From positions 1 to 14,792 of the forward strand of contig CAVZMI010000019.1 in assembly GCA_963776275.1 (NCBI GenBank): a stretch of DNA of 14,792 nt, written 5' to 3'. This document shows, piece by piece, positions 1 to 14,792 of this stretch. How positions within the stretch are numbered: position 1 is the stretch's first letter; each line of letters starts with the position of its first letter. A model generated the notes under the pieces. The model ran no database searches. It saw only the letters and a program-made list of their open reading frames with translations, and was not told the DNA's origin. The translations under genes and the position numbers were made by a program. Origin of the DNA: Ignavibacteriota bacterium (GTDB taxonomy: Bacteria; Bacteroidota; Ignavibacteria; UBA10030; CAVZMI01).

Positions 1-104
1 GGACGGAATATTGATAGAAAAGTGGAATAATAAACAGACAGAGCTCCGCTAGGCCAGCGTGCACTCCGACGTAGACGGAGTGAGCGGTATATCATGATAA
101 GTGA

Positions 105-1361
105 TCAGCCAACTATGATTCCTGAGAGTAGTAAAATTGCGCTCAACAGGATGAGGATGATCGATGTTGTCCATCCTATGATGTTCTGCGTTCGGTTGTT
201 CGTATACTCCTCCATGATTTCAATCTTATTCACCATGATCATCATGCAGATCAGAACTACAGGCAGCAGGATGGCATTCAGCACCTGCGTCCAGATGGTG
301 ATCGTGATCAACGGTGCATTGGGGAGGAGAATGATACCGATACCGATCATAATGATTGAGGTGAAGAGAGTATAGAATTGCGGTGCTTCACTGAATTTTT
401 TATTAATCCCTGCCTCAAACCCAAAAGCTTCGCAGATATAGAAGGCGGCAGTCAGCGGAAGAATTGTTGCCGAAAACACCGAAGCAACAAAGAGACCGAA
501 CGCAAAAACCTGTGATGCGATCGCCCCGGCAAGCGGGCGGAGAGCCATTGCCGCATCCTTAGCCTCAACGATGTGAATCCCATTGACATGCAGCGTTGCG
601 GCACAGGAGACAACAATGAAAAATGCCACGACGATTGTAGCGATGCAGCCGAGAACAACATCCCACATCGTATATTTATAATCACCAATAGTCAGTCCTT
701 TTTCGATTACCGAAGACTGCATGTAGAATTGCATCCACGGCGCCACGGTTGTACCGACAAGACCGAGGACCATGCTGATATAGCTGTTGTCCCATTGGAT
801 TGTGGGCGTTACGATCGCCTTGCCTATCGCTGACCAATCCGGTTTTGCAAGAATCGCCGAAACGACGTAGGAAAAAAGAAATACACTAAAAATCAAAAAT
901 ACCTTTTCCGATATTTTGTAATTTCCTTTCACGACGAGAATCCAGACGAGGATTGCCGCTATAGGTACCGAGACATACTTGCTGACGCCCAGCACGTTCA
1001 TACTACCGGCGACACCAGCAAATTCCGTCGCGGTATTCCCAATATCGGCAATAAGCAGGGAAACAAAAATATAGAAAGTTATCCTCACGCCAAAATTTTC
1101 ACGGATCAGATCGGCAAGTCCTTTACCCGTCACGATCCCCATCCGTGCATTCATTTCCTGCACGGTTAAGAGCGCGATGAAGGATGGAATCAGCGTCCAG
1201 AGAAGCCTGTATCCATAGTTGGCTCCGGCAACAGAATAGGTTGTAATACCGCCGGCATCGTTATCAACGCTTCCCGTGATGATTCCCGGACCGATAATGC
1301 TGAAAAAAATCAGGAGGTTTCGAAGGGCAGGATTATCTTTGAGCCGTTTCAGAATTCCCAT
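105..1361 (-). CDS. NRAMP/SLC11-family divalent metal transporter, NRAMP-related Mg2+ transporter (NRMT) type
   Basis: 418 aa with about 11 hydrophobic segments. N-terminal GPGIIT..DNDAGGITTYS..GA.YGY.LLW and QEM.ARMG.VTGKGL are NRAMP-fold signatures. TM1 DNDAGG and TM6 GTTVAPWMQFY replace the canonical MntH DPGN and MPHNL motifs. The ATG lies 1 nt after the upstream stop, with GGGAG as RBS. Confidence 0.9.
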   Translation of the reverse strand: MGILKRLKDNPALRNLLIFFSIIGPGIITGSVDNDAGGITTYSVAGANYGYRLLWTLIPSFIALLTVQEMNARMGIVTGKGLADLIRENFGVRITFYIFVSLLIADIGNTATEFAGVAGSMNVLGVSKYVSVPIAAILVWILVVKGNYKISEKVFLIFSVFLFSYVVSAILAKPDWSAIGKAIVTPTIQWDNSYISMVLGLVGTTVAPWMQFYMQSSVIEKGLTIGDYKYTMWDVVLGCIATIVVAFFIVVSCAATLHVNGIHIVEAKDAAMALRPLAGAIASQVFAFGLFVASVFSATILPLTAAFYICEAFGFEAGINKKFSEAPQFYTLFTSIIMIGIGIILLPNAPLITITIWTQVLNAILLPVVLICMMIMVNKIEIMEEYTNNRTQNIIGWTTSIILILLSAILLLSGIIVG

Positions 1362-1362
1362 A

Positions 1363-2676
1363 TCAGGCTCCCGCCACTTTCTCTATTTCAGGGAATACCG
1401 ATTCCATTGCATCACGCGACGATATGATTCCTTGGATCTGATGTTTTTCATCTACGACGGGGACTGCGAGAAAATCGTATTTAAAAAATATCTGTGCGAC
1501 ACGTTTGATATTCGTATCAATCTCAACGGAAACAGGATTTTCAGTCATTATCTCCACAATCGCCGTTTCGGGTTTTTCACAGAGGAGCTGTCGTAGTGTG
1601 ACGATCCCTTTGAGTTTTTCGTCCACATCAACGACATATACATAATACAAGAGCTCAGCCTGTTTACTCTCTGCCCTGACAATTGTGAGTACCTCTCCGA
1701 CAGTCTGATTCTCACGGGCGGTGATGAAATTCGTATTCATGATGCTGCCCACGCTGAATTCCGAGAGTCTCGATAGTTCTTTCAATTCAGCCACTTGTTC
1801 AGCCGGCAGGTTTGCATAGACTGCATTACGATTCTCCGGTGAAATTTCATCGAGAAGGTCAACGGCCTCATCCATTTCCATTTCGTTAATAATATTTGCC
1901 AGGAGAGTTGTATCAAGGGTCTCGGCGATTTGCACCCGAATTCTCATTTCGATTTCCTGAAGAGCGGCCGCCGCTGTTGCAAAATCGAGCGAGCCAAGAA
2001 GAGAAAGGCGCTCTTCAGTCCCCAGATCCTCTATGATATCGGCGAGATCGGCCGGGTGTGCTTCGGCAAACTTCGACGGGTCGACTTTCAAATGGAGGGC
2101 ACCGCGAACATTTGTTGTAGTCGTCGGCTGAACGTATTTCCATGTTACAAACTTATCTTTGATATCACGTGAAAATACCCAACGAAACATCGAATTGAGG
2201 ATTTTCTCCCATCCAAGACGGCGGAACAGTCCTTTAATCCCGATATCGAGGTGAACAACAAGGAGGTTCGGATTTTCTTTCGACGTATTATCGATGAGCA
2301 GCTGAAGATCGTTCACACGGACGACTTTGTATCCCGAAGTCGAGATCACCTGCTTATCGAGAAAAGTCTTCTTAAGCAGAATTTCATTTTCCCCGCCCTG
2401 AATAGTACCGTTCAGAGTGTCGGGCATTGTTTCAATAACAATTCTCTTCCGCGGTACAATCTGGCGAACCGTACTCCAGGGTATATAGACGGGATTTTTC
2501 GAATCTACAAATGATGTTATGAGAGCGGAGAACTTTGGATATACTTGAGGAGTGGAAGCAGCAAAATCGAGAGTCCTGCCAATTTTTCGACCGGTACCTC
2601 CATCGATGACCGGCAAACCGAGTATCTCCGAAATATACATGAACATCTTTGTATCGTACCCTGTAGCTCTCTGCAT
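1363..2676 (-). CDS. Soluble MgtE-like regulatory protein: PRC-barrel-like N-terminus, MgtE_N domain and tandem CBS pair, with no membrane domain
   Basis: HPADLADIIEDL (MgtE_N), EMEMDEAVDLL, VGSIMNTNF, YYVYVVD..KLKGIVTLRQLL and KYDFLAVPVVD..GII (CBS pair). N-terminal SEILGLPVID..G.KIG and LKKTFLDKQVI...G.KVVRVNDL look PRC-like. No TM segments. The ORF track starts at 2700; ATG 2676 (GAGGA 8 nt upstream) is preferred, but the start is uncertain. Confidence 0.85.
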   Translation of the reverse strand: MQRATGYDTKMFMYISEILGLPVIDGGTGRKIGRTLDFAASTPQVYPKFSALITSFVDSKNPVYIPWSTVRQIVPRKRIVIETMPDTLNGTIQGGENEILLKKTFLDKQVISTSGYKVVRVNDLQLLIDNTSKENPNLLVVHLDIGIKGLFRRLGWEKILNSMFRWVFSRDIKDKFVTWKYVQPTTTTNVRGALHLKVDPSKFAEAHPADLADIIEDLGTEERLSLLGSLDFATAAAALQEIEMRIRVQIAETLDTTLLANIINEMEMDEAVDLLDEISPENRNAVYANLPAEQVAELKELSRLSEFSVGSIMNTNFITARENQTVGEVLTIVRAESKQAELLYYVYVVDVDEKLKGIVTLRQLLCEKPETAIVEIMTENPVSVEIDTNIKRVAQIFFKYDFLAVPVVDEKHQIQGIISSRDAMESVFPEIEKVAGA

Positions 2677-2715
2677 AGCACACATCCTCGATGACATCAT
2701 TTAATAACAGGTTGG

Positions 2716-2741
2716 AATAAAGAGCAGCTCGGTTCTGCTCT
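2716..2741 (-). terminator. Intrinsic terminator-like hairpin in the 5' leader of the MgtE_N/NRMT operon
   Basis: Minus strand reads AGAGCAG-AACCGAG-CTGCTCT followed by TTATT: a perfect 7-bp stem with a short U-rich tail. Confidence 0.5.
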
Positions 2742-2846
2742 ATAGAATCATATTTTCTGGAGTGTTTTTCACCCTCCTTCTATTGGAGATCGATTGTTAT
2801 GAGAGGAGTCTGTGGAAAATATCCTTAATCCTCCCCTCACATTTCC

Positions 2847-2875
2847 AATATACAAAACCGGGGGAAAAAATGCAT
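2847..2875 (-). promoter_or_regulatory. Putative sigma70-like promoter for the MgtE_N/NRMT operon
   Basis: Minus strand ATGCAT-N17-TATATT; the -35 match is weak. Confidence 0.3.
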
Positions 2876-2917
2876 CACTTTTTTTCTTCATGAAAAATAA
2901 TTAAGGATGAAGGCCAC

Positions 2918-3463
2918 TCAGAGCACAAACGGAATGAACATCTTGGATCTCGTCATGTATGCCTTATACTCATCACCGAATCTCCGGATGTTTTCACCCT
3001 CCTCAACCCTGGCTGTCGCATAAAGAAATGCCGTCATAATAATAGCAATCACTAGGCCTAGAATGGTAATATCTTTGAAATACACTCCCCATCCAAGAAA
3101 CAACAGTGACGCATACATCGGATGCCGGATATACTTGTAGACCCCGACTGTCACAAGCGTGTTAGTGTTCTCGAACCCGACATTACCCGGTTGATTCACG
3201 GAGGCGGAAGGCTTCCCGATTTTTCGGAGGAACAAGACACCGGTTACTACAAAAGCCAGCGACACCATCAACAGAATCCAGGAAACGATCTGATGAAGTG
3301 AAAAAGGGTCGGAAAACCAGCCTTCAATGTTCATTAGAATTAGCAGGATAATAGCCTCGAATGCGAAAAACCGGAAGAATCCGTGGGAATAGCGAACTCG
3401 GAAGGATTTTAGTGAAAAAATTATGATACCGATTGAAGCAAGAATAAAAATAATGATTTTCAA
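2918..3463 (-). CDS. Isoprenylcysteine carboxyl methyltransferase (ICMT/PEMT) family membrane protein
   Basis: Multi-TM protein with LVTVGVYKYIRHPMY and ARVEE...RRFGDEY.AY...SKMFIP, the characteristic C-terminal motifs of the family. TTG start with AGAGGA upstream. Confidence 0.88.
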   Translation of the reverse strand: MKIIIFILASIGIIIFSLKSFRVRYSHGFFRFFAFEAIILLILMNIEGWFSDPFSLHQIVSWILLMVSLAFVVTGVLFLRKIGKPSASVNQPGNVGFENTNTLVTVGVYKYIRHPMYASLLFLGWGVYFKDITILGLVIAIIMTAFLYATARVEEGENIRRFGDEYKAYMTRSKMFIPFVL

Positions 3464-3577
3464 TATATGATCATTCCTCTTAAAAGCGTTCTTTATTAAA
3501 ATACAATCGAATGTTAAAAAATAGAAACGACTTTTTCAAGGATTATTATATAATCTTTTATTGCCGTTCGGATAGCA

Positions 3578-3620
3578 ACACAAAAGCCCTGCCCCGTTTT
3601 TAACGGGACAGGGCTCTGTG
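3578..3620 (-). terminator. Rho-independent terminator of the cold-shock gene
   Basis: Minus strand AGCCCTGTCCCGTT-AAA-AACGGGGCAGGGCT-TTTGTGTT: 14-bp stem with one G-U pair, followed by a U-rich tail. Confidence 0.85.
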
Positions 3621-3623
3621 ATT

Positions 3624-3848
3624 TCAAAAAAATCTCTGAGTGCTATTTACACTTTTGAGACCTTCGCAGCCTGGAGGCCTTTCGGACACTTTTTCGATTT
3701 CGAATTCGACAGTGTCGCCTTCGTTGAGGTTCCGATATCCGTCACCTACGATTGCTTTGAAGTGAACGAATACATCTTCGCCACCCTGCCGTGAAATGAA
3801 ACCATAACCCTTAGCTGAGTTGAACCACTTGACTGTTCCTTTTTCCAT
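3624..3848 (-). CDS. csp: Cold-shock protein (CspA family) with an apparent 1-nt insertion near 3688; the corrected CDS would be 3647..3848 (66 aa)
   Basis: [17 protein letters not shown] (RNP1), DVFVHF (RNP2) and L.EGD.VEFEI are present. The canonical tail [13 protein letters not shown] is in the shifted frame and ends at TAA 3647-3649. Confidence 0.93.
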
Positions 3849-4084
3849 GGAACAAATCCTTTCTTAAATCTGGTAATTTCCCGATGACCCGGGAATGGTG
3901 TACGCCGTTCTCCGCCAGGGCGGAGAGATGCTCTTAAAACGCGAAATCGCTTCAAACGGTTTTTTAATTGCACCATTTGCAGCGACTTCTCAACTGCTGG
4001 CGACACTCACCTTGAACAGGCTTCTTACGGTCTATCAGCAAGATCTCAAAAGCGCAAAAACGGTGTACTGTTCTTTGCGTTGTA

Positions 4085-4113
4085 AACTTACATCTTTTCA
4101 GCGTTAAAAGCAA
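4085..4113 (-). promoter_or_regulatory. Putative sigma70-like promoter for csp, implying a 5' UTR of about 230 nt
   Basis: Minus strand TTGCTT-N17-TAAGTT. Long 5' UTRs are typical of csp genes. Confidence 0.4.
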
Positions 4114-4214
4114 GCTCTCTTTTAAAAAAGACAAAAAAATACGCAATTATCCTTGAAGGACCCATATCAACCTGTGATGTTAAAAAACCCTAGAAAACGA
4201 GGCATTTTTTAGGA

Positions 4215-5330
4215 TTATCGCGTACTTATTGCCACACCGACGGGTGACCAGGCAGCTGTAAGTCCAAGAAGCAATCCCTCCCGTTCACAATAAGCGCACC
4301 ACAAACCGGGCGAAAAATTCCCGATTCTGACAACTCCCGGATAGATATTAAGATTGGCAATGTAGTCTGTTTTCTTTGTAATCGAAAGACTGGCCAGTAA
4401 CGAATTATTCCGGTCATAAAAAAAACCGATGTTCCAAACCAGATCAAGTGTCTTTTTGTTGCTGGTGCGATTTAACAAAATCAGATCACTTGCGGCCATA
4501 CCGACTCCGAACGAGAATGCATCTCCATCCGGCCATTTGTACGATGCTCCGCCCAAACCGTTTGTTCCGAAGTAGTAAAAAAGATGCCATCGGTCGGAAA
4601 ACGGTAACTTCCATTTGACAGAAAAAAATTGTCCGACATTATGGAGATGCAAATTCCGGACTGAAAACGAGGGCTGGAGCGACCAATCGGCGAGATTCAG
4701 CGTCTGACTGAAAAACTCATTGACATTATCGAACGAGAATAGAACGATGGCGCCGACATCAAAAAGCCACAGGTCGGCAATCGGATCGACGTTATCACCG
4801 ATGTAAGTGTCGTTTTCAGTAATTTCGTTGATGAAATGATATGTATATAAAGTAACAATGGACAGAAGCCGGGGATATGCACAATTGTTATACTCATACC
4901 ATTCTTTCATCTTTGTATATTCCATGCCGCTGCCGACAAGGTGCAATGTATAATTCGGCCAGTATTGCGCATTATTCCGGTTGAAACTGACGGGAATAAC
5001 CTGATCCTGCAGAAAATTCCACCACCCGTACCGGCTGATCGGACCGATTGGATCGAGAATATTTCGTAAGACATTTTTACCACCCTGATAAAACGGCACC
5101 TTCCCGATGTCTCGCTGGTGACTCACCTGAAACATGTCAAAACCCCCGTTCAGGATTACCGATACAGGATTATAAACGGCGTCACTGCCGTAATCATATC
5201 CCTTATAAAAATAAGGCTGCTGTGCATATGTAATTCCCGTGGATATCACTACGATGCATACAAAAGAAAAAATAGGGAAGAATCTACGGAAGGAACAATG
5301 ATTTCCCTGAAAGACTGAATTTATAATCAT
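4215..5330 (-). CDS. Secreted or envelope hypothetical protein, possibly with a DUF3943-like N-terminal region and a beta-strand-rich C-terminus
   Basis: 371-aa ORF with a Sec signal ending ...STGITYA|QQ. The W.NY.LHLVG.G.EY motif is reminiscent of DUF3943 proteins. The C-terminal half has aromatic-rich amphipathic strands. Confidence 0.65.
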   Translation of the reverse strand: MIINSVFQGNHCSFRRFFPIFSFVCIVVISTGITYAQQPYFYKGYDYGSDAVYNPVSVILNGGFDMFQVSHQRDIGKVPFYQGGKNVLRNILDPIGPISRYGWWNFLQDQVIPVSFNRNNAQYWPNYTLHLVGSGMEYTKMKEWYEYNNCAYPRLLSIVTLYTYHFINEITENDTYIGDNVDPIADLWLFDVGAIVLFSFDNVNEFFSQTLNLADWSLQPSFSVRNLHLHNVGQFFSVKWKLPFSDRWHLFYYFGTNGLGGASYKWPDGDAFSFGVGMAASDLILLNRTSNKKTLDLVWNIGFFYDRNNSLLASLSITKKTDYIANLNIYPGVVRIGNFSPGLWCAYCEREGLLLGLTAAWSPVGVAISTR

Positions 5331-5520
5331 AAGACCGCTGGTAATGATCCGATGAAAGACCTACGATAGTGTGGAATAGTATATACTTCATATGATACTC
5401 CTACACTGAACGCATAGCGATTGATATTTAAAAATAAGAAAAAAAAGGGGGAATTCAAAATTGATCATCTGCCACAATTGACCAGGTCGTTTTACTTCCT
5501 ATTCACCATGCTTTACACAC

Positions 5521-5549
5521 AAAAAAAAGGGCTCAATCACTTGAGCCCT
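5521..5549 (-). terminator. Rho-independent terminator of the lipoprotein gene
   Basis: Minus strand AGGGCTCAA-GTGA-TTGAGCCCT followed by a T-run, 20 nt after the stop codon. Confidence 0.9.
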
Positions 5550-5569
5550 CCGAAGAGTAAAAATATTTC

Positions 5570-6025
5570 CTAAAATGGCGTTTTACCTGAGCTGCCCCAA
5601 ACGAGATTATGTTGAGCAAAAAACTGCTCAGGGTCAATACCTTGATTTTTCAACTCAGTTATAAGTTGAGAGGTTTTAATCGGTGTTCCTTCTACGGAAT
5701 ATCCAAGAGTTCCAAAAAACAAAAACACATTATATTTATAAAAAATTACTCCATCCAACAAAGCATCATATCCTGGACCAGCTTTCTCAATCGCTCGGTC
5801 GACTGCATTTTTAACTTGAGGCTGCCCGAATGGCACAATAAACTGCGTAACCATATCCTCTCCTGATACTCTTTCACCCTTCCCTGTGTCTTTTACCTTG
5901 ATGTTGGTATTTTTGCTGCTAATTACAGTGAAATCTAAAATCCTCGTTGTACAACCGCTTAAAAAGAGGAACAGTACTACTAAAAGAGATATCATGAAAA
6001 AACGTGTAAAAAATGATTGTTTCAT
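5570..6025 (-). CDS. Hypothetical lipoprotein
   Basis: MKQSFFTRFF, a hydrophobic stretch, then lipobox LSG|C followed by TTRILDFTVISSKN. ATG 6025 follows GGAGG at good spacing and is preferred over the track start at 6037. Confidence 0.8.
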   Translation of the reverse strand: MKQSFFTRFFMISLLVVLFLFLSGCTTRILDFTVISSKNTNIKVKDTGKGERVSGEDMVTQFIVPFGQPQVKNAVDRAIEKAGPGYDALLDGVIFYKYNVFLFFGTLGYSVEGTPIKTSQLITELKNQGIDPEQFFAQHNLVWGSSGKTPF

Positions 6026-6307
6026 AGGACCCTCCATAAAATGATTATGATGAACATATGGTATAATAGTGGATTAGGAAGAATTACGGATTAGCCGACA
6101 TTTTCTTAGGATGCCAAATAACCTGAATGCTAATAAAATATTGTTTTTTTACACAATGTCAATAGCTGACAATATGAAAAACAATAAAATATTGACTAAA
6201 TAAAAAGTTTAAAAAATGTGTCCGTTTTGGGCAACCTTATTTAGAGACGAGAAACTAGGTTTTTTCCGATCTTATTATAACACCCAAAATAACGAGACCT
6301 TCAACTC

Positions 6308-8302
6308 CTACTCGACTGCTGCGGCAACAAGTCCTTTTAATTTTGACAGCCGTTGTCTGAATTCTTCGGCTTCTATTACCAGTTTCTGAATGACACTATT
6401 GGTTTCGATTGAGCCGCGAACTGCTGCGAAATCCTTCGCTATTTCTTCCTTATCCTGATCGAGTCCATATCCAATGGTAGTAGATACTCCAAACTCTTTC
6501 TTTGCATCTTCGAGAATTGCATTATGAATTAAACAAACTGCTTGATCCCACTCATCTATCGCTTTCATGATACCGGGCTTTGATATCAACGTGGGTGCTA
6601 CTCCGAATTCCTCCTTGAATGCAGTAAAAACGTACTCCCATTCATCATCTCTATAAGTGCGGTAGATCGATTCCAGACGCTGCAGTAATATATCGTATGA
6701 CGCGATCGTACCGTTTCGTACATCGGCTTCGAGTTTGAGAATACGCTCACGCGGTGCGATCAGTCCTGAAAGATCAATCCATTCTGACGGAGTCTTCAGC
6801 TCTCCGGCCGGTTTCAGACTTTCAACGGCTGCTTTCCAACTTTTCAATGTCCCGAGCTCCGTCATCAAGCGGGTGCATACCCTCTCAACGAGATAGCGGA
6901 CAATCGCCTTCGTATAGTATTCCGCTCCTTTTTTCAACATCGAGCAGCTGATTTGAACTCCGCCGTATTGAACGGCAGTTCTTTCAGGGGGGGTCACCTT
7001 ATTCAATGAAAGAAGCTCTTTTCTCCCCTTCCGAATTTTCTCGACGATATATGGAGAGAAGATGTCAAACACGACGAGGTCGCGTTTTTGAGATAATTTG
7101 CGATTGTCCCGCTTCAGCCACTTCTCACCATCCCGTACTATGCCGACGGAAAAAAGATTTCTTCCCGGAAGGATCTGAGAAACACCTTCATCCTCACGAA
7201 TGATGGAAAAAGGAAGATTCGGTGTATCGATGTTGGTATAATGCTTACCGAGGATTACACTGAATGCACCTACATGCGTCTCGTGCAGCACATATGAGAA
7301 CGATCCGGTTTTAGTGCCGCGCTCGTACACGCCCTGATGCACAGGACCGAGCTTGTACATATGATTACTCTGGTTCGTTCCGCTGCCGGCATTGAAGAAT
7401 GAGAATAGTCCGGCAATGAGCAACGACGATTTGTGATGCGTCACCGTATAAGGGCCGCCAAAGATCGAGACGGCCTCACCGTGAAATCCTTCACAATTGG
7501 CAAAGAAGAGCGAATTCTCGGCCGAGAACTGTCTTCCGAGTTTAGTCCCCTGCCCGACAAACGCCTTATTGAGGATCGCGCCGCCGGTAACCTCCGCTCC
7601 TTCACTTGTTATAAAAGAGACCGCCTGGACATTCTCACCGATCTCGGTCGGCTGTTCCTGACAGCTCAAAACTGTTCCATTCTCAAGCAATGCTGCACCG
7701 TGGATAAACGCATATGGACCGATATTGACGTTGCGTATCATACCGCAATGAATGACCTTCGCACCTGTGCCAACGATGCCTTTTTCTGTCTTCGTTGATT
7801 GTATTTTTGCAATAATTAAATCTGATAATTTTTTCGTGAACTCACTATTTCCGCGATACATTGCCTGAAGATGAGCGACCTGTGCAGTCAGGTCGTTGAG
7901 AATTACGGTACCGCGTCCACCCCCTTCATTCACAACATTGAGTTCAACGCCGTTTCCAAAATTTCCCTTCTCATCGGCGACAAGTGCTGCGACGTTTTGA
8001 ATAAGGGCATTCGATTCGATCGTATAATTCGTTATTGCCGAACCGATATTGGCTATCCGTACATTATCGCCGATTTCGCACCGAGCAATCGCGGCGTTAT
8101 AAAGTCCGCACGGAAACTCGACACCATCAAATGAGATCGAGCCTTTATTCGTGCCTATGAATACTGTGCCGAAGAATTGAACATTCCGGATACGGGAGAG
8201 ATCGGTCTCTGTTTTCACGGAGACATCACCCCAATCACTCGCAGAACAACCCTGAACTGTCAGCTGTTGGAATTGCGCTGGCGTTAATCGAGAATATGTC
8301 AT
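6308..8302 (-). CDS. DUF4954 family protein (left-handed beta-helix / GlmU-like repeats plus helical C-terminal domain)
   Basis: Recognised motifs: L..QGCSA.DW, V.VVNEGGGR, FSAENSLFFANCEGFHGEA.SIFGGPYTVTHHKSSLLIAG.FSFFNAGSGTNQSNHMYKLGPVHQG..ERG.KT.S and W.DLSGLIAP. The start is probably MTYSRLT (8302) rather than the track start at 8368. Confidence 0.88.
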   Translation of the reverse strand: MTYSRLTPAQFQQLTVQGCSASDWGDVSVKTETDLSRIRNVQFFGTVFIGTNKGSISFDGVEFPCGLYNAAIARCEIGDNVRIANIGSAITNYTIESNALIQNVAALVADEKGNFGNGVELNVVNEGGGRGTVILNDLTAQVAHLQAMYRGNSEFTKKLSDLIIAKIQSTKTEKGIVGTGAKVIHCGMIRNVNIGPYAFIHGAALLENGTVLSCQEQPTEIGENVQAVSFITSEGAEVTGGAILNKAFVGQGTKLGRQFSAENSLFFANCEGFHGEAVSIFGGPYTVTHHKSSLLIAGLFSFFNAGSGTNQSNHMYKLGPVHQGVYERGTKTGSFSYVLHETHVGAFSVILGKHYTNIDTPNLPFSIIREDEGVSQILPGRNLFSVGIVRDGEKWLKRDNRKLSQKRDLVVFDIFSPYIVEKIRKGRKELLSLNKVTPPERTAVQYGGVQISCSMLKKGAEYYTKAIVRYLVERVCTRLMTELGTLKSWKAAVESLKPAGELKTPSEWIDLSGLIAPRERILKLEADVRNGTIASYDILLQRLESIYRTYRDDEWEYVFTAFKEEFGVAPTLISKPGIMKAIDEWDQAVCLIHNAILEDAKKEFGVSTTIGYGLDQDKEEIAKDFAAVRGSIETNSVIQKLVIEAEEFRQRLSKLKGLVAAAVE

Positions 8303-8598
8303 ATGGAAGTCTTTTTGAGAATTGACGATTACGATATGATGAATGTAACGAAATGAGCAGGGAAACACAAGAATAATTCTGGGGCGAATTAAAAAAAATC
8401 CCGGACTGCCTTGAATCGTATTGATGCTGCATTCCGCAATCTACACTTTTCACCCTGTAATTTAAAATCACCAAAGGTATTGTAAAATCTATGAAAACCC
8501 TCTTTTTTGTATCACCATTGCTTCTGAAATAAAAAAATGATTTTTTTGTAGGATTATATGTCCACTATCCATTTCCCATCTCATAGATTGGAACACCT

Positions 8599-9459
8599 AT
8601 GCATCTTATCGACATTATTCGCCGTTTTAAGGGAGGAATTCTACTTGCCTCCTCACTTGTCGTGATCGAAAATGTTGCCTGGATCATCGAGCCGAGTGTT
8701 TTCGGAAAAGTCATCGATGCACTGATCGATGCGGCATCGAAAGGAACGAATATATCTGCCCTTAGTCCGCTCCTAATCTGGATTGGAGTTTTTTTCGTCA
8801 ATTCCGGTGTCGGGTCATTGAGACGTTCGTTCGATCAGAAAATTTTCCTCAATATGTTCACCGAAATAGCGACAAGCGTTTTAAAGTCTTCGAACAAACA
8901 AAAACTCTCCGTTTCACGGACAGCGGCAAGGGCTCAACTGTCGAAAGAGTTTATCACATTCTTACAATACCGTGTCCCTGAAATTATGGAACAGGTCATC
9001 GCTATCGGCGGTGCATTGGTCGGTTTGTCATTTTTCGATTACAGGATCGCACTGACATGTTTTATCGTTACTATCCCGTTGTTGGCAATCAACATCCTCT
9101 ATAATAGAAAGGTCGTTCTCCTGCAGGCCAATATTCACGACAGTGCAGAAGATGCATATGAGATTTTTGCCGGTCGTGATCCCGAGACCGTTCGTGCATA
9201 TTATTCGGCATTGGCCGTTCCTCAACTGAAAGTAGCGAACTGGGGGGCGATTACATTCGGGCTGATGCGGCTTTTCCTTCTTGGAATTTTTCTCGTCGTC
9301 CTCTACATCTCGATCGATCTGGATGATTTCACAACAGGAAATATTTATTCAATCGTGGCGTATATCTGGACGTTCATTACGTCGTCTGAGTACCTACCGG
9401 AATTAATGGAAAGCTGGACATCGTTGAAAGATATTTCAACGAGACTCAAGGCTGATTAG
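8599..9459 (+). CDS. ABC transporter six-transmembrane-domain protein (stand-alone ABC_membrane_3-type), with no ATPase domain
   Basis: 286 aa with about 6 TM segments. Motifs LV.IEN....EP.VFGKVID.L, RR.FD.KIF, ARAQLSKEFI.FL...VPE and G.IYSIVAYIW.F..S...LP match the family. No Walker A/B motifs. Confidence 0.8.
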   Translation: MHLIDIIRRFKGGILLASSLVVIENVAWIIEPSVFGKVIDALIDAASKGTNISALSPLLIWIGVFFVNSGVGSLRRSFDQKIFLNMFTEIATSVLKSSNKQKLSVSRTAARAQLSKEFITFLQYRVPEIMEQVIAIGGALVGLSFFDYRIALTCFIVTIPLLAINILYNRKVVLLQANIHDSAEDAYEIFAGRDPETVRAYYSALAVPQLKVANWGAITFGLMRLFLLGIFLVVLYISIDLDDFTTGNIYSIVAYIWTFITSSEYLPELMESWTSLKDISTRLKAD

Positions 9460-9471
9460 ATGGCTGGTGTA

Positions 9472-9515
9472 AATTGTGACCTGTCCGCCGGAACGAAGTG
9501 AAGGCGGAATTGTGA
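9472..9515. repeat. REP-like GC hairpin flanked by 8-bp direct repeats
   Basis: AATTGTGA (9472-9479), then TCCGCC (9484-9489) pairing with GGCGGA (9503-9508), then AATTGTGA again (9508-9515). Confidence 0.5.
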
Positions 9516-9741
9516 ATCACTAGTGTCCGGTTAGAACTTTGACAGTATATGTAAGTTCATTGACAAAGAAAGAACTGAAACTCAATATGTCACTCTATAC
9601 AATTCTACGAATCTTAAGCGTTTCCTTGTTTGAAAAAGAAACGATAAATCAACGACTTGCAGAATCGAACAGTCTAATCGATACCTGCATGTCCACAGAA
9701 CAGTTGTATTTATTCACTTCTTAACCGTACAGCAGTGATTC
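9514..9741 (+). mobile_element. Internally deleted IS4-family element (MITE-like remnant) retaining both inverted ends
   Basis: Left end GAATCACTAGTGTCCGGTTA (9514-9533) versus reverse complement of the right end GAATCACTGCTGTACGGTTA (9722-9741): 17/20 match. The ends enclose the C-terminus of an IS4-type transposase. Confidence 0.75.
9539..9724 (+). pseudogene. C-terminal fragment of an IS4-family (DUF4372-associated) transposase
   Basis: KKELKLNMSLYTILRILSVSLFEK..INQ.L...QL.LF* matches the recalled C-terminus of these transposases. The stop lies inside the right IR and the DDE core is absent. Confidence 0.75.
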
Positions 9742-9950
9742 TATATATACTTTACCTTTGTTTGGAATGTCTCTGTTTTCAAAAGTAAGAAAATCACAAA
9801 TAAAATCTGATACTCTATTTATTGAAATGTATGTAAGGGTAACCGTTGTTAATGTTTGCTGTCCATCAATTACTGAAAGCTCTCTTATTCCTGAGAATGA
9901 ATAGACATCTTCATTATATCTGCACTTTGCTAATGTTGTTATACTTTTAT

Positions 9951-10775
9951 CTATTTTTCAGGGTTCATTGATTCTAAAGATTTATAAGTGAACTGAAAAA
10001 CCTCGGTCTTTCCATAATTTTCACCGAGAGGATTTCCATATTTATCATAGATTTCAACCTGCCAGACGTATATTTGCCCGTCTTCGAGCTGGATTGCATC
10101 AGTTGGCATCATGACATTTGGAGTAATCATGTCCAATTTGACGAAAGTCTGTTCCGTACAGCTTTCGATTGATTGCTGCGGAGTTTGGTAATCTCGCTTT
10201 TTACATACACTTAACTTGTACCTGAGTTCAAGCTTGTTAACGGATTTTACCGGAGTCCATTGAAATATCGGATACTTTATGTTAATAGTATCATTATCGG
10301 CAGGTTGAAGGAGGATAGGCGGATTGACTGCCCTGACTAAAAATGGAGAGCAGTTCGTGGTAATTTCTTTACCGTCCTGATCGAGGTCAATTACGTCAAC
10401 GCAGAGAGTATAGTTGTCATCGGGTATCCTGCTGGAAGCTGTTACTTTCGATTTGATACTTTCATCCAAAACGAGTGTTGAAAGATCAACAAGTTGTTTA
10501 CCATAAAGAACGATATCCCCGCTTGCCGGTATTTTAAATACCTGGCTTCGAATTTCAGCAACCTTCCCCTTTTCAATGCCGGTTACAGTCAGTATCAACT
10601 GTGCCTGGGGTATCTCTGTCTTTCCCAGATTATTTATTTTCACGCTGACCATCCTCGACTCCTCTGTCCACTCATGAATATAGGGGGAGATATCCGGAGT
10701 AATGATAACCTGGTTCAAAACCTGTGAAAATATATTGCCGTTTAATAGAATAATAATCAAAAATATTTTTTTCAT
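9951..10775 (-). CDS. Secreted TANFOR-like / fibronectin-III-like (Ig-fold) protein
   Basis: ATG 10775 follows GGAGG and gives the signal peptide MKKIFLIIILLNGNIFS|Q. Motifs P..SPYI.EW, RIPDDNYTLCVDV.D, C..F.V...NPPILLQP.D....PIFQWTPV and L..GQIYVWQV....G.TEVFQFTY resemble TANFOR-domain proteins as recalled. Four Cys, probably two disulfides. Confidence 0.65.
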   Translation of the reverse strand: MKKIFLIIILLNGNIFSQVLNQVIITPDISPYIHEWTEESRMVSVKINNLGKTEIPQAQLILTVTGIEKGKVAEIRSQVFKIPASGDIVLYGKQLVDLSTLVLDESIKSKVTASSRIPDDNYTLCVDVIDLDQDGKEITTNCSPFLVRAVNPPILLQPADNDTINIKYPIFQWTPVKSVNKLELRYKLSVCKKRDYQTPQQSIESCTEQTFVKLDMITPNVMMPTDAIQLEDGQIYVWQVEIYDKYGNPLGENYGKTEVFQFTYKSLESMNPEK

Positions 10776-10795
10776 AGTTCCTCCAATAATTTTTC

Positions 10796-12553
10796 TTAAA
10801 ATATTTCTCTCGAATAATTCAGCCACCAGCGGAATTCATCAAATCCACCGGGACGCCCCGGGTTATGCCATGTTGAATGAAGCTGAAGCGATAAAATTTC
10901 ATTTTCAGCGATTCGGAAATTAATATCCATGCCTGCTTCCCAGTGGTCATTGATAATAACTTGCTGGAAATAAAACTGCTCAGAATATGAAAATGAGCCT
11001 TTTAGCTTTACTCCAAGCTTCCTGTTATAAAACAGAGATTCTATTGCAATATCCGATGTATTGATTGTTTGTGTATTATCTGTCTGAACTAATCTCGAAT
11101 GAGAATTAGATAATGTAGTGGTAAAATTTTCACCAATACTTACTCCATAAGAAATTATTAAGTTCAGATTTTCGTAATTCAGCTTATAATTACCGCTGTC
11201 TGCATTGGTATTCACACTGTAAAAGCCGGCTAAAGATAACCTGTTGAAAAATGACGGGCTGCCGAACACAAACATCGGGGTCAGGCTGAAATTATGTGTT
11301 GTCGAGTGTAATGGAGTCATCACAGAATCATCTGAAATGATATTATTAGAATTATGGAACAGGTTATAAGAAACTGAAAATGAAAACACCTTCGAGATGT
11401 TAAAAAATGCTGTCTGAATGAATCTCAGGAGTTCGGTCGTTGCCATCTTACTATTGTCGAGATTATCGTATCGGTAGGCAGCAGTAGTCCTTGCAGATAT
11501 TAATCTTTTAAAAAGGGAATACCTGCTTTCCAATCCATATTCCTGGTAGTCATTATCATGTCTGACGGTACCGAGAGATGTATAGCCCGGCTCTATACGC
11601 TTGAAATTACCTGTCAGTGAAAATCTGTCTAGTTTCAGTTCAAGCTTGGAATTAAATGCATTACTAACACGCGAACTTTGCCTGCCGGTGAATAGAGGAG
11701 TACCGATTATATTAAGTTCTCCGCCGTAAACTTCGGAATACATATTTCTCGTATGAGCAGACACGTCGGCTTCGCCCGACCATTTGAGCATTCCGTCGAA
11801 TATATTTGCTGAAAAAGATGTAGAGGCAACAAGATTCTCCTCGGGCTTTGTATTTCCCGGATGAGCTATTGATGAAGTATCATCTTTAATTTTTAATAGT
11901 CCTATATTAAAAATGAAGCTTTTTTCAGTCCCTATCGATAAATTCCCAGTCCACATTGTTCTGAGATAACTGCCTTCAAGATTCGTTTCGTTGCTGTCAG
12001 CTGCTCTTTTAATAATACCACCGGCAAACTGAAGCCTAAACACGCTTGCATGAAGGTTTGCATCAACTCCCCTCAGGTTAATTCCATTCAAGCAGTACTC
12101 ATTGAATTTAGGTATAATATCGCCGAAGATTAAACCGCCAATATCGTAATATTCGGCGGTTAAGCTTATCTGGTCAACCGCCTGCATTGCTGACATATCT
12201 TCTGTTGACAGGTGTGCATCGAGCTTAATATTAAACGATTTGTTATAAAAATTGCCCAGAAGCTCTATCAGAGTGGCTCTTTTTGGCCTGCGTTCATCAA
12301 TACCGCTGGCTTCATACACTTCATTTTTTACCGAGACCTTCATTTCATTTTTCACAGAATCTACCTCGTCTGCCTGACCGGATTGGTTGGCGGGTATTGA
12401 GTCCCTCTCCTTTTTTTCATCATTGATTACTGAAGAAGCTTTTATCACCGTATCGGCAGTTTTTAAAGAATCGCTCTGAACCTTGGCGAATAGGATAAAT
12501 GGAGGAATGAAAATGTTCACTATAAATATAAATATTTCAAACCTTAATATCAT
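10796..12553 (-). CDS. Outer-membrane beta-barrel protein of unknown family
   Basis: 585 aa with a Sec signal and many amphipathic strands (GVDANLH...FRLQFAGG, F.L.GNFKRIEPGYTSLG, FSFSVSYNLF). The terminal WWLNYSREIF ends in Phe, like a BAM beta-signal. RBS AAGGA. Confidence 0.75.
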   Translation of the reverse strand: MILRFEIFIFIVNIFIPPFILFAKVQSDSLKTADTVIKASSVINDEKKERDSIPANQSGQADEVDSVKNEMKVSVKNEVYEASGIDERRPKRATLIELLGNFYNKSFNIKLDAHLSTEDMSAMQAVDQISLTAEYYDIGGLIFGDIIPKFNEYCLNGINLRGVDANLHASVFRLQFAGGIIKRAADSNETNLEGSYLRTMWTGNLSIGTEKSFIFNIGLLKIKDDTSSIAHPGNTKPEENLVASTSFSANIFDGMLKWSGEADVSAHTRNMYSEVYGGELNIIGTPLFTGRQSSRVSNAFNSKLELKLDRFSLTGNFKRIEPGYTSLGTVRHDNDYQEYGLESRYSLFKRLISARTTAAYRYDNLDNSKMATTELLRFIQTAFFNISKVFSFSVSYNLFHNSNNIISDDSVMTPLHSTTHNFSLTPMFVFGSPSFFNRLSLAGFYSVNTNADSGNYKLNYENLNLIISYGVSIGENFTTTLSNSHSRLVQTDNTQTINTSDIAIESLFYNRKLGVKLKGSFSYSEQFYFQQVIINDHWEAGMDINFRIAENEILSLQLHSTWHNPGRPGGFDEFRWWLNYSREIF

Positions 12554-12597
12554 TTCCTTTAAATGGTAAATAAATCAGATTATTATCTATTTAGGCG

Positions 12598-12625
12598 ATT
12601 CTAATATTTTACTTAATGTTATCAA
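12598..12625 (-). promoter_or_regulatory. Possible internal promoter for the beta-barrel/TANFOR-like pair
   Basis: Minus strand TTGATA-N16-TAGAAT about 45 nt upstream of ATG 12553. The AT-rich context lowers specificity. Confidence 0.3.
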
Positions 12626-12898
12626 GACATAATTGTTCTCCAAAATCAAGACTAGAAAAACAGATAGTGATGGTATAAAAATAGAATCTATTACAAACAT
12701 AATTAAATAGGATACTTTTGGAATCATTTGGCTTGATATTCAATGACGGACAATTGGTTGATGCAAGTAATACAGCAACCCCCGACAAAAAAATCCAAAT
12801 GAAGAGAATGCAAAAATCTATATAATACTCTGCGAAGAGTTCTGTAAGGTCAAATCACACGTAAAGCGATAAAAAGACGTTGATGCCAAGTGATATAG

Positions 12899-12935
12899 AA
12901 ACAAATGGGATTCGAAAAACGAATCCCATTTGTTT
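12899..12935. terminator. Perfect 16-bp stem-loop (bidirectional terminator or mRNA-stabilising hairpin) directly after the Tat/Cys-rich gene
   Basis: AAACAAATGGGATTCG-AAAAA-CGAATCCCATTTGTTT, 7 nt downstream of the stop at 12943. Confidence 0.85.
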
Positions 12936-12942
12936 TCAATAC

Positions 12943-13533
12943 TTATGGTTTCTTTCCCTGTATTGCCTTGACAGATGTATCAGGGGGAGCTGAAATAACA
13001 TTTATTCTAATTTTATCATATTGTTCCCGAGTAATAAGTCTTCCTTGTTTTTTCAATTTTTCAATAACTGCTTTTGAACTTGGAGGTATTACTGGAATTG
13101 GGATTTTACTATCAACCCTTCGTATTTTACCATTACCAAGCTGAATTGCGTTCGTCGCAATAGCGTACCACACAAAAGTAAATCCATCGCAACGACAGAG
13201 GCAATCGCATATATGAATACCGTTGCAAGGACTATAAGTACCACAATTAGTATAAGTACCAGAACAAGTTTGTTCAGGTTGTGCTGGTAAAGAATAACCG
13301 AAGTGATCCAAAAGACCAATGCCGGTATAAACCTTCCCATCATCCTCCATAAATAGTGCTTCCTTATTTAAAGCAATTGTCTTATCTTGGGCTAATAGCT
13401 GTTTCCCGCCAACAACCGAACCAACAGCCAAACCTGCTGCAACTATAGCTGCCTTACCCAAGAAATCTCTTCGTGGGTTGTTAGTTTCTTCCTGGTTTTC
13501 ACCGGGTTTCGATTTTTTTTTGTTTTTACTCAT
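12943..13533 (-). CDS. Twin-arginine (Tat) signal protein with a 7-Cys core; candidate substrate of the adjacent radical SAM/SPASM enzyme
   Basis: NPRRDFLGK Tat motif, h-region AAIVAAGLAVGSVVGG and LLA|QD cleavage site. Core is CSGTYTNCGTYSPCNGIHICDCLCRC. ATG 13533 has AAGGAG 8 nt upstream and lies 22 nt after the rSAM stop. Confidence 0.85.
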   Translation of the reverse strand: MSKNKKKSKPGENQEETNNPRRDFLGKAAIVAAGLAVGSVVGGKQLLAQDKTIALNKEALFMEDDGKVYTGIGLLDHFGYSLPAQPEQTCSGTYTNCGTYSPCNGIHICDCLCRCDGFTFVWYAIATNAIQLGNGKIRRVDSKIPIPVIPPSSKAVIEKLKKQGRLITREQYDKIRINVISAPPDTSVKAIQGKKP

Positions 13534-13555
13534 GTCCAAACTCCTTTAAATTATG

Positions 13556-14792
13556 TTAAACAAATGTTGATTGAGATAATTCACAAAATTCATCTATGCT
13601 ATCTGATAGAATTGACATAAAATTAACATCAAAATTTTCACAAAAAGGGCTATAAATTGTACCGTTATTATACTCTGCATGTTGAGAACAGCCACCGCCG
13701 CAAATAAGGCAATATGGGCAATTCAAGCATTCCTTTATACTTCCTACATGGCGGTTATTCCAATATTTATATTTCTCGTCAAAAAATTGTACGCCGTTTA
13801 AATCAGAAAAAGTTCCTATTTTTGATTGTTCCCTGCCAAGCGTCTCCCAGCAGCAGTAAATATTTCCGTCGGGGGCAAACATATATAACCCTGAATTTGA
13901 AGAACACGTTAAGGATTTTATCTGATAAGGTTTGCTGGCGGCAATAGCGGGAAAAATTTGATTGATTTTATAATTTAAATAACTATTAACAATTACATTG
14001 ATATATTTCTGGTGAAAATCGGATAAACGTTTTTTTATATCCGATTTACTGATATTTGTAAATATTGATGAATCGGAATTCTTTTTGTAAACCGGACTGC
14101 AATAAATAGTTATATATGGATTATTACATAATCCTGCTTTATCGAGGTCGTCTATCAATTCGGGGAAATAATCAATATTATCATTATCAATATTCACCCT
14201 GATAAGAATATGAGTATTTTGGAGTTCGGCAATTTGTTTAATATTTGATATGATTTTATCATAAGAGCTTTCACCCTTAATATGAACTCTTTTACGGTCG
14301 TGTATCTGCTTGGTTCCGTCAATTGAAATCTGTATTTGTTTAAATACCCCTTTTTCAAAGAAAGAAATGAAATCAGCAATATCATGCCCATTGGTTATTG
14401 CAGAAAAAGAATAGCCTCTATCAATGCCTTTCTCAATAATTTCAAATACAATTTTTTTGTTATAGGCATTTAAGGGTTCGCCGCCGTATAAACCAATGAC
14501 ACCGCCTTCGTTTTTGTTGTCTTGAATAGCTTTGATCTGGTCAATACATTTATAAATAACATCAACCTGTTCACTTGTTAACAATACATTATTTTTTGAA
14601 TAACCGACTAAACCTTCATTGCTTAAAAGCTCATTTTGAAGAGGACGCTCATAACAATATGTACACCTGTAGTTACAGTCGTAACTGGGAACAATCATAA
14701 AATTTGAATTGGCTTTATATAATTTATGCAACTCCTCGCTCAATTGATAAACAATTTTCTTCTCTTCTTCGTGAGTTAAATTAGTTAAAAAA
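13556..14792 (-). CDS. Radical SAM/SPASM-domain peptide/protein maturase, 5'-truncated by the window edge
   Basis: Core motifs CNYRCTYC (CX3CX2C, 14654-14677), LYGGEPL, ITNG, QISIDG..HDRKR and RVNID. SPASM motifs C-x12-G-x4-C (CSSNSG...DGNIYCCWE) and Cx2Cx5Cx3C-x15-C (CLNCPYCLICGGGC...C). The frame stays open upstream of the track TTG at 14743 (FLTNLTHEEEKKIVYQL) to the window end. Confidence 0.93.
   Translation of the reverse strand, partial: FLTNLTHEEEKKIVYQLSEELHKLYKANSNFMIVPSYDCNYRCTYCYERPLQNELLSNEGLVGYSKNNVLLTSEQVDVIYKCIDQIKAIQDNKNEGGVIGLYGGEPLNAYNKKIVFEIIEKGIDRGYSFSAITNGHDIADFISFFEKGVFKQIQISIDGTKQIHDRKRVHIKGESSYDKIISNIKQIAELQNTHILIRVNIDNDNIDYFPELIDDLDKAGLCNNPYITIYCSPVYKKNSDSSIFTNISKSDIKKRLSDFHQKYINVIVNSYLNYKINQIFPAIAASKPYQIKSLTCSSNSGLYMFAPDGNIYCCWETLGREQSKIGTFSDLNGVQFFDEKYKYWNNRHVGSIKECLNCPYCLICGGGCSQHAEYNNGTIYSPFCENFDVNFMSILSDSIDEFCELSQSTFV

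Follow-up and report, generated by a model that had tools for sequence, protein, structure and literature searches.

A radical SAM/SPASM enzyme gene and a neighbouring gene for a Cys-rich protein with a twin-arginine signal in an Ignavibacteriota contig: a probable undescribed way of exporting enzyme-modified small proteins

The DNA considered here, which we call the window, is an entire contig (C19) of 14,792 bp from an Ignavibacteriota bacterium whose genome is assembled in 38 contigs. Near one end of the window, on the minus strand, lies the 3' part of a gene for a radical S-adenosylmethionine (SAM) enzyme with a SPASM domain, followed on the same strand by a gene for a 196-aa protein that begins with a twin-arginine translocation (Tat) signal and carries a compact group of Cys residues. 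A first-pass annotation, made from the letters of the window, had proposed that the enzyme crosslinks the Cys-rich part of its neighbour and that the Tat pathway exports the product. According to the analysis described below, the pair probably represents a route, not described before, by which small proteins are exported once an enzyme has modified them. The features of the pair are the following, where P0124 denotes a homologue of the small protein and RRE stands for the recognition element of peptides that are made on ribosomes and modified after translation (RiPPs).

13556..14792, minus strand: radical SAM/SPASM maturase gene, 3' part (residues about 94-504 and the stop codon); about 280 bp at the 5' end, encoding an RRE-like domain, are missing at the contig end.
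13534..13555, minus strand: intergenic spacer of 22 nt, read from the sequence, with an AAAGGAG ribosome-binding site 7 nt ahead of the ATG at 13533.
12943..13533, minus strand: precursor-like protein gene, 196 aa, with its stop codon at 12943-12945, based on the open reading frame (ORF) and a homologue.
13390..13533, minus strand: twin-arginine signal peptide, residues 1-48 (RRDFLGK, a hydrophobic stretch, LLA/QD, the slash marking the cleavage site), conserved in P0124.
13348..13398, minus strand: segment behind the hydrophobic region of the signal, residues 46-62, a likely recognition sequence on the grounds of conservation, a P0124 counterpart modelled on the RRE-like domain, and a weak partner-family profile match.
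13189..13266, minus strand: Cys-rich core, residues 90-115, with 7 Cys, differing between the two known homologues (composition, alignment).
12946..13188, minus strand: basic tail, residues 116-196, with a PSSK..VI..LKK.G stretch conserved in P0124.
12899..12935, minus strand: perfect hairpin of 16 bp that starts 8 nt past the stop codon of the 196-aa ORF (folding: -24.9 kcal/mol, z -8.0, none of 200 shuffles being equally stable).

The reading frame of the enzyme gene is open at its 5' end and runs through 411 assembled codons, uninterrupted, to a TAA at 13556-13558. The anatomy given by the first-pass annotation, namely a SPASM gene followed after 22 nt by a 196-aa gene with a strong ribosome-binding site, a Tat signal (RRDFLGK...LLA/Q), a spacer of about 40 residues, a 26-aa core holding all seven Cys and a basic, Pro-rich tail of about 80 residues, was borne out in each of its parts. 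The signal scores 19.9 bits with the TIGR01409 model, for which the cut-off is 16.7, the spacer comprises residues 49-89 (41 aa), and the only Cys of the protein are those at positions 90, 97, 103, 109, 111, 113 and 115. The tail has 81 residues (K+R 15, D+E 6, P 7). Use of a TTG at 13539 as the start codon would lengthen the protein to 198 aa. We regard the ORF as a real gene because a homologue of 168 aa exists at E 1e-27. The hairpin is likely to be the terminator that closes a two-gene operon; a simple terminator scan made no call at this place, and the structure was found by separate folding. The short spacing and the shared terminator tie the two genes together.

Membership of the enzyme in the radical SAM superfamily is evident from its score with PF04055 (51.2 bits, cut-off 29.5) and membership in the SPASM subfamily from TIGR04085 (47.7 bits, cut-off 27). 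In an alignment of 20 sequences its Cx3Cx2C motif, CNYRCTYC, occupies invariant columns, and the SPASM residues C296, C314, C355, C358, C364, C368 and C384 are all invariant. The enzyme scores below the cut-off of every curated NCBIfam family. Its best match there is TIGR04463, the CrpC family, with 149.6 bits where 525 are required, and lower scores were obtained with CefB (126, cut-off 600), the PapB ranthipeptide maturase NF047865 (113.7, cut-off 340), the SCIFF maturase TIGR03974 (84.1, cut-off 425), the anaerobic sulfatase maturase TIGR03942 (76, cut-off 349) and QhpD, TIGR03906 (75.2, cut-off 453). The five top-scoring named families, TIGR04463, CefB, PapB, Clo7bot and geopeptide, are all maturases of Cys/thioether peptides or proteins. 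Neither of the two window proteins fits any named family in NCBIfam or Pfam, and the statement of the first-pass annotation that it recognised no named class stands.

Full-length relatives of the enzyme have 470-550 aa. The closest of them, P0004 (504 aa), is 78% identical, and the window copy begins at P0004 residue 94; the first 93 residues are absent because the contig ends there, and the corresponding codons are found on no other contig of the assembly. In an AlphaFold2 (AF2) model of P0004, with a predicted local distance difference test score (pLDDT) of 90, residues 8-92 form an N-terminal domain of the beta-beta-beta-alpha type, three strands followed by helices. A Pfam scan for an RRE found no PqqD domain. 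The best fold match of the model is CteB, a thioether-forming enzyme (5wgg; Foldseek E 8e-16, template modelling score 0.62/0.70, 520 alignment columns), after which come TigE, ChlB, SuiB and anSME; CteB is also the best match among solved structures by sequence (E 2e-13). In our preferred reading the enzyme is composed of an RRE-like domain, a radical SAM core and a SPASM domain that would hold two auxiliary clusters.

The small protein has very few relatives. A phmmer search of 1.84 billion representatives returned three matches at E <= 0.001, which were the protein itself, P0124 and P0125. Of these, P0124 (49% identity) is the only real homologue, while P0125, a 1089-aa repeat protein that matches only residues 44-83, in 7 stretches and with E 2e-6, was set aside because its likeness seems to lie in a short repeat motif. 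When 5.8 billion clusters were searched by word index, only the 196-aa protein itself was matched among 242 candidates; the ESM Atlas gave no usable match for it, and six-frame searches found it in none of 60 related genomes and its sister P0124 in none of the 276 further genomes searched within the order. For P0124, as for the enzyme relative P0004, the record is of a single NCBI contig of 11,329 bp, and the two are probably neighbours on one contig. The window pair stands for a rare and divergent offshoot, of which two members are known. A pairwise alignment of the two small proteins shows that the signal, the following 40 or so residues and the C-terminal PSSK..VI..LKK.G stretch have been kept, and that the core varies. 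An arrangement of this kind, in which the flanks are kept and the core changes, is what one would look for in a precursor protein. The genome encodes TatC and two TatA/B proteins that score above their cut-offs, so that with its signal the 196-aa protein qualifies as a Tat substrate whose export is predicted.

Information on the relation between enzyme and small protein comes from a model of the sister complex, which joined P0004 (with a 37-row alignment) to residues 46-168 of P0124. The complex score was 0.71 (three runs gave 0.71, 0.72 and 0.67), and the best of three controls scored 0.00. In the calibration 58 of 80 solved complexes attained the mark of 0.71, as did 2 of 110 mismatched pairs. 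At least 54% of contacts are shared between runs, with a partner pLDDT of at least 39, and the fold of P0124 itself is uncertain in the model. The interface that is modelled with confidence places P0124 residues 46-61, which comprise the signal end and an 'S-V-A-L-N' segment, against residues 14-39 and 80-92 of P0004. This surface includes the third strand and a helix of the N-terminal domain, the usual geometry of an RRE with its leader, and the matching segment of the window protein, L-L-A-Q-D-K-T-I-A-L-N, is conserved. Modelling and comparison support the view that the enzyme recognises the segment just behind the Tat signal through its RRE-like domain, and that the variable core is what reaches the active site.

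A wider view of the pair is provided by the relatives of the enzyme, 237 of which were found at E <= 1e-10 among 4093 candidates scored; neighbourhoods were fetched for 36 genome loci and 80 metagenome loci. In a quick IQ-TREE phylogeny (LG+G4) of 83 sequences, the window enzyme and P0004 fall together inside a clade of 50 (Shimodaira-Hasegawa approximate likelihood ratio test 100), where they form an unresolved three-way split with two sub-clades of 30 and 18 rows. A protein of 80-200 aa is the neighbour of most enzymes in the clade. In the larger sub-clade the gene directly downstream of the enzyme encodes a protein of 85-150 aa with the pattern '...I/L-N...MPDGK...LGLDP..PDAW....CGSNA.AL' and a helical tail (e.g. 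L003:2407-2772 and L018:6278-6682). Loci with such a PDAW...CGSNA partner include L003-L012, L015, L018, L023 and L045-L068, along with others. The partner lies downstream in 12 of the 13 genome loci whose enzyme is at least 36% identical, the thirteenth having only 135 bp of downstream sequence, and it was found in 26 of the 59 metagenome loci examined at E <= 1e-20, with two more weak matches. By pattern and inspection, a twin-arginine signal is carried by 28 of 37 unique partners and is absent from the other 9; the three partners that were checked against TIGR01409 all passed. In public records these proteins bear only the names 'hypothetical' or 'twin-arginine translocation signal domain-containing protein', and they belong to no family of Pfam or NCBIfam. 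A conserved Trp precedes the conserved Cys site of the family, several enzyme relatives carry two precursor copies, and 21 of the 30 loci in this sub-clade continue with a DUF6895 gene. DUF6895 is known to us solely through a paper title from 2026 that concerns a lasso-peptide epimerase.

The smaller sub-clade is arranged differently. At least six of its loci (L066, L072, L075, L077, L079 and L085) encode a Cys-containing precursor of 100-195 aa upstream of the enzyme (e.g. L075:650-1243), and this precursor has no Tat signal. The upstream precursors possess variable Cys-rich cores with up to 8 Cys and a common C-terminal motif, L..G.h.....Q...I..IR, and a hidden Markov model (HMM) of the motif marks 11 of the 18 rows. 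To judge from the titles of the sequence records, the enzyme clade and its partners are spread over six phyla or more (Cyanobacteriota, Acidobacteriota, Pseudomonadota, Rokubacteria, Desulfobacterota and Bacillota). The first-pass annotation had offered a check of its own, namely whether homologous enzymes adjoin Tat-signal, Cys-rich ORFs; small partners with Tat signals do adjoin them, in the proportion just given for the commonest type, and these have a single conserved Cys. The broader unannotated clade, with its Tat-tagged partners across several phyla, matters more than the window pair itself.

The PDAW...CGSNA partners and the 196-aa protein are alike in the enzyme clade to which they belong, in their downstream position and in the order of their parts, which run from a Tat signal through a short I/L-N motif and a core to a helical tail. 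They are unlike in that the partners have one conserved Cys, usually a DUF6895 neighbour, and no significant match to the 196-aa protein without the signal. At first the 196-aa protein appeared to be a divergent member of the family (HMM E 6e-5), but the alignment covered the Tat signal and the match was gone once the signal had been removed. The window pair is tied to the partner family by enzyme phylogeny, gene order and common layout and not by demonstrable homology of the mature proteins.

As a whole, these results lead us to favour, with some reserve, the picture of a two-gene RiPP-like operon for protein modification with a Tat-exported product. We are more confident of one component of this picture, and consider it likely that the two genes are related as enzyme and substrate. 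For thioether chemistry, which is argued by analogy, the balance is about even; Cys-derived thioethers are proposed because the top-scoring named families are all Cys-directed and because CrpC makes ranthionine links. In the sequence of events that we envisage, the enzyme would bind the 196-aa precursor in the cytoplasm by way of the segment directly behind the Tat signal and would then modify the variable Cys-rich core, most likely by introducing Cys-derived thioether crosslinks. The modified, compact product would be exported by the general Tat pathway and presumably cleaved by signal peptidase at LLA/QD, leaving a crosslinked small protein of about 148 aa in the periplasm or outside the cell. 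Judging by its predicted length, this product would be a modified protein rather than a peptide, and a metal-binding or a structural role for it are guesses. The proposal of the first-pass annotation that the enzyme crosslinks the Cys core therefore survives in part. An enzyme-substrate pair is likely in view of the operon-like spacing, the sister-pair model and the family neighbours, but the core as the target is in question, given how few of its Cys align and the single Cys of the family.

A wider reading, which we hold to be as plausible as its negation, extends these ideas to the whole clade and makes the window pair an offshoot of it. The clade would comprise an undescribed but widespread class of 80-200-aa proteins that are crosslinked in the cytoplasm by one clade of RRE-radical SAM-SPASM enzymes and exported by Tat already modified. 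The recognition sequence would lie right behind the Tat signal, so that enzyme binding and export targeting would compete for one N-terminus, and general Tat export together with signal peptidase would replace the dedicated protease and ATP-binding cassette (ABC) exporter of classical RiPPs.

A number of observations weigh against these proposals. P0124 has 4 Cys, differently spaced, and only 2 of the 7 Cys of the window protein align with them, so the Cys core may not be a conserved target. The PDAW...CGSNA partners hold a single conserved Cys, and one second-copy partner (L023) has no Cys at that place. In a test set of 21,709 sequences, made up of 21,707 same-genome decoy ORFs and the two queries, a signal-free HMM of the partner family gave E 110 for the 196-aa protein and 1.7 for P0124, which ranked first. 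An hhalign profile-profile comparison with the partner family reached only 48.9% probability (P 1.8e-4), over 36 columns right behind the signal, and a C-terminal motif that seemed by eye to be shared with the partner family was unsupported by two HMMs run against the same decoys. DUF6895 was not found in the source genome, a weak negative given that the same search was also empty in 14 control genomes. The complex that was modelled is that of the sister pair and not of the window pair, the custom alignments used for it mean that the calibration holds only roughly, and its passing score may reflect memory of solved RRE-leader complexes (CteB, SuiB, ChlB). The adjacency of P0004 and P0124 is deduced solely from the equal size of their recorded contigs. 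An AF2 model of the 196-aa protein, built on a 2-row alignment, was unusable (pLDDT 32.8). Finally, the enzyme gene is incomplete, the DNA upstream of it is absent from the assembly, and one sub-clade encodes its precursor on that side.

Other explanations of the locus must be set beside the proposed operon. One of them retains the enzyme-substrate pair and alters the chemistry, which might, for example, be an epimerisation or an aromatic crosslink through a C-C or C-O bond in place of a Cys thioether. The Cys-less second-copy partner of L023 fits this idea, as do the conserved Trp before the site in the partner family, an aromatic FVWY stretch behind the Cys core of the window protein, and the cyclophane-forming families that also score for the window enzyme, though lower; set against them is the Cys-directed activity of all five top-scoring named families, together with the ranthionine links made by CrpC, the closest characterised family member (available part of PMC13692751). 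We judge such a modification unlikely, though it should be kept in mind. It is less probable still that the true substrate is encoded by another gene, upstream and beyond the contig end, and that the Tat protein is a further substrate, an accessory, or simply a neighbour with no relation to the enzyme. The contig does end inside the enzyme gene, with the missing 93 codons on no other contig, the six loci listed above have an upstream precursor, and there are relatives with two precursor copies. However, the larger sub-clade has its partner directly downstream, as in the window, and the modelled complex of the sister pair scores above its controls and shows the interface expected for an RRE.

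The pair might also be a decaying remnant in a mobile island, with an interrupted or non-functional enzyme gene. The region from 9480 has a low GC content and no counterpart at this position in a same-genus genome, the contig breaks inside the enzyme gene, and C36, which is the next contig by synteny, begins with a truncated IS5-like transposase (DUF772). Yet the 411 codons are open, all catalytic Cys are intact, the precursor ORF is intact and has its ribosome-binding site, and neither the last 300 nt of C19 nor the first 700 nt of C36 has any other match in the assembly. With no such matches at the ends, an insertion inside the enzyme gene is not shown, and we consider decay improbable. Cargo of the Tat pathway is typically loaded with a cofactor, and the small protein could be an ordinary periplasmic protein that binds a cofactor or metal (e.g. 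Fe-S or copper), its Tat export reflecting cofactor loading and the enzyme acting elsewhere. The presence of 7 Cys within 26 residues is in keeping with this possibility, and many Cys-rich proteins in the proteome scan of the CrpA authors are predicted to bind metal cofactors, according to the available part of PMC13692751. Retention of only two of the seven Cys in the one homologue, and the different spacing of its four, do not fit a fixed metal site; no metal-binding family of Pfam or NCBIfam matches the 196-aa protein, and the partners of related enzymes have a single Cys. This last explanation seems to us very improbable, and we return to the two-gene modification operon as the preferred interpretation.

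The genomic setting of the proposed operon points to a probable horizontal acquisition of part of the window, in which one further region stands out.

9480..14792, no strand assigned: low-GC variable region, with 32-40% GC where the genome has about 45%, and without a counterpart at this position in the same-genus genome; two secreted proteins and the radical SAM pair are encoded in it.

From 2 to 9479 the window is 93.8% identical to, and collinear with, the same-genus genome, which lacks the radical SAM pair. This collinearity, together with a DUF4954 protein that is 94% identical in that genome, indicates that the contig belongs to this lineage. The protein in question (6308-8368, minus strand) has 686 aa, DUF4954 and DUF6819 domains and traces of hexapeptide repeats. 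Past the synteny break the same-genus genome continues into sequence equivalent to contig C36, from which we infer that C19 and C36 are adjacent, a placement based on synteny alone. The start of C36 (C36:1-3477, locus L136) carries the truncated transposase, a small Tat-signal ORF and SIR2-like, IrrE/M78-like and helix-turn-helix genes, and resembles a defence or mobile module. The radical SAM pair is situated in a variable, probably horizontally acquired region, with the 5' end of the enzyme gene in an assembly gap beside a mobile element. The small ORF on C36 (L136:687-941, plus strand) encodes 84 aa, matches no family and carries a twin-arginine-like signal, S-R-R-D-F-L-K; some 100 bp of this ORF are conserved in the same-genus genome, and it may be a remnant of a Tat-exported enzyme.

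The first-pass annotation had also stated that the window contains no exporter. An ABC transmembrane-domain gene is in fact present at 8599-9459 on the plus strand, but we take it as unrelated to the pair because it lies in the part that is collinear with the same-genus genome lacking the pair; a Pfam scan of the window ORFs revealed no protease gene. Just downstream of the hairpin are two overlapping genes for secreted proteins, at 9951-10826 and 10796-12553 (both minus strand), without Pfam matches. The one of 585 aa has an aromatic residue at its C-terminus, as outer-membrane barrels do, and has relatives of about 31% identity in same-genus and same-family genomes. At 105-2700 (minus strand) a gene for an Nramp-family transporter lies directly downstream of one for a PRC-barrel/MgtE_N/CBS protein without the MgtE channel domain, and the two may be a regulator-transporter pair. 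In contig G001:C4 of the related genome, just past the synteny break (L135, about 10470-10880), there is an element of about 400 bp with copies of 70-94% identity on at least six contigs of the source genome (C6, C7, C12, C15, C23 and C31), which is either a dispersed repeat or a conserved gene start.

If the proposed operon is confirmed, its significance would lie chiefly in the export step. Among the general pathways Tat alone is known to carry cargo that is already folded, and this property makes it a logical route for crosslinked products that Sec might not thread. The pair would represent a new export logic for genome mining of RiPPs and protein modification, and mining that requires a peptidase or an ABC exporter would miss such loci. 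The clade and its partners are unannotated and, by the titles of the records, are present in cultured strains (Novosphingobium malaysiense, Maricaulis and Desulfocicer vacuolatum), so that the idea is directly testable. The weight of the finding is lowered by close precedents, by a Cys core that is not conserved and by the incompleteness of the locus.

Those precedents define what may be new. Protein-sized, Cys-rich SPASM substrates are already in print (CrpC/CrpA and, earlier, QhpD/QhpC), and so are protein-sized RiPPs with a general signal peptide (bufferins). In QhpD/QhpC the SPASM enzyme introduces Cys thioethers into a small protein whose final location is the periplasm, and QhpC, a subunit of an enzyme, has a leader with a dedicated peptidase and exporter. 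A SPASM enzyme and a small Cys protein, periplasmic there and predicted to be exported here, are common to that system and to ours, whereas the score with TIGR03906 is far below its cut-off and no qhp genes are seen at the window. CteB/SCIFF and PapB have the RRE-radical SAM-SPASM layout that is predicted for the window enzyme, CteB being its best structure match, but act on short leader-core substrates (about 45 aa) without signal peptides, and their cut-offs are not reached. CrpC/CrpA of Methanococcus voltae, published in 2026 and belonging to the TIGR04463 family, comprises a SPASM enzyme and a protein-sized Cys-rich substrate, and the available part of the paper, in which the quinohemoprotein amine dehydrogenase QHNDH is also mentioned, allows a closer comparison (PMC13692751). 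It has an RRE-bearing SPASM enzyme with an adjacent substrate of protein size that is rich in Cys, an arrangement that is also predicted for the window pair; in CrpA the recognition part is conserved and N-terminal and the Cys motifs are C-terminal, and in that part of the text no dedicated protease or exporter is identified. It differs in being archaeal, in the distance of the window enzyme from the family (149.6 bits compared with 525) and in CrpA itself, which is a protein of about 29 kDa with ten 17-residue repeats and for which the same text describes no Tat signal. Supplemental Data set 1 of PMC13692751 lists other radical SAM-associated Cys-rich proteins and might include relatives of the window protein.

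Bufferins, made from BufA by a multinuclear non-heme iron-dependent oxidative enzyme (MNIO), offer a second comparison. In the available part of PMC11626156 they are described as protein-sized, Cys-containing RiPP precursors with a signal peptide, which the authors consider rare in bacterial RiPPs. They resemble the window pair in that a general-secretion signal replaces a dedicated exporter and the product is periplasmic, and they differ in having a Sec signal, MNIO/DUF692 and DUF2063 proteins and a thiooxazole where the window has a twin-arginine signal and a radical SAM enzyme; no Pfam match to DUF692 or DUF2063 was present among the 11 window ORFs scanned. In full-text searches of the literature we found no radical SAM-modified precursor with a twin-arginine signal, and a paper on lanthipeptide display, as far as its available text goes, brings up Tat only as a speculation and describes preliminary attempts that failed (PMC5686179). 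The view of the first-pass annotation that the architecture is unprecedented must accordingly be narrowed, since CrpC/CrpA and the bufferins anticipate much of it, and it would hold for the combination of a Tat signal with radical SAM modification. If confirmed, the 196-aa protein would be the first precursor in the literature searched to combine, in nature, a twin-arginine signal with modification by a radical SAM enzyme, joining the protein-sized, Cys-rich substrate known from CrpC/CrpA to the use of a general export signal known from the bufferins.

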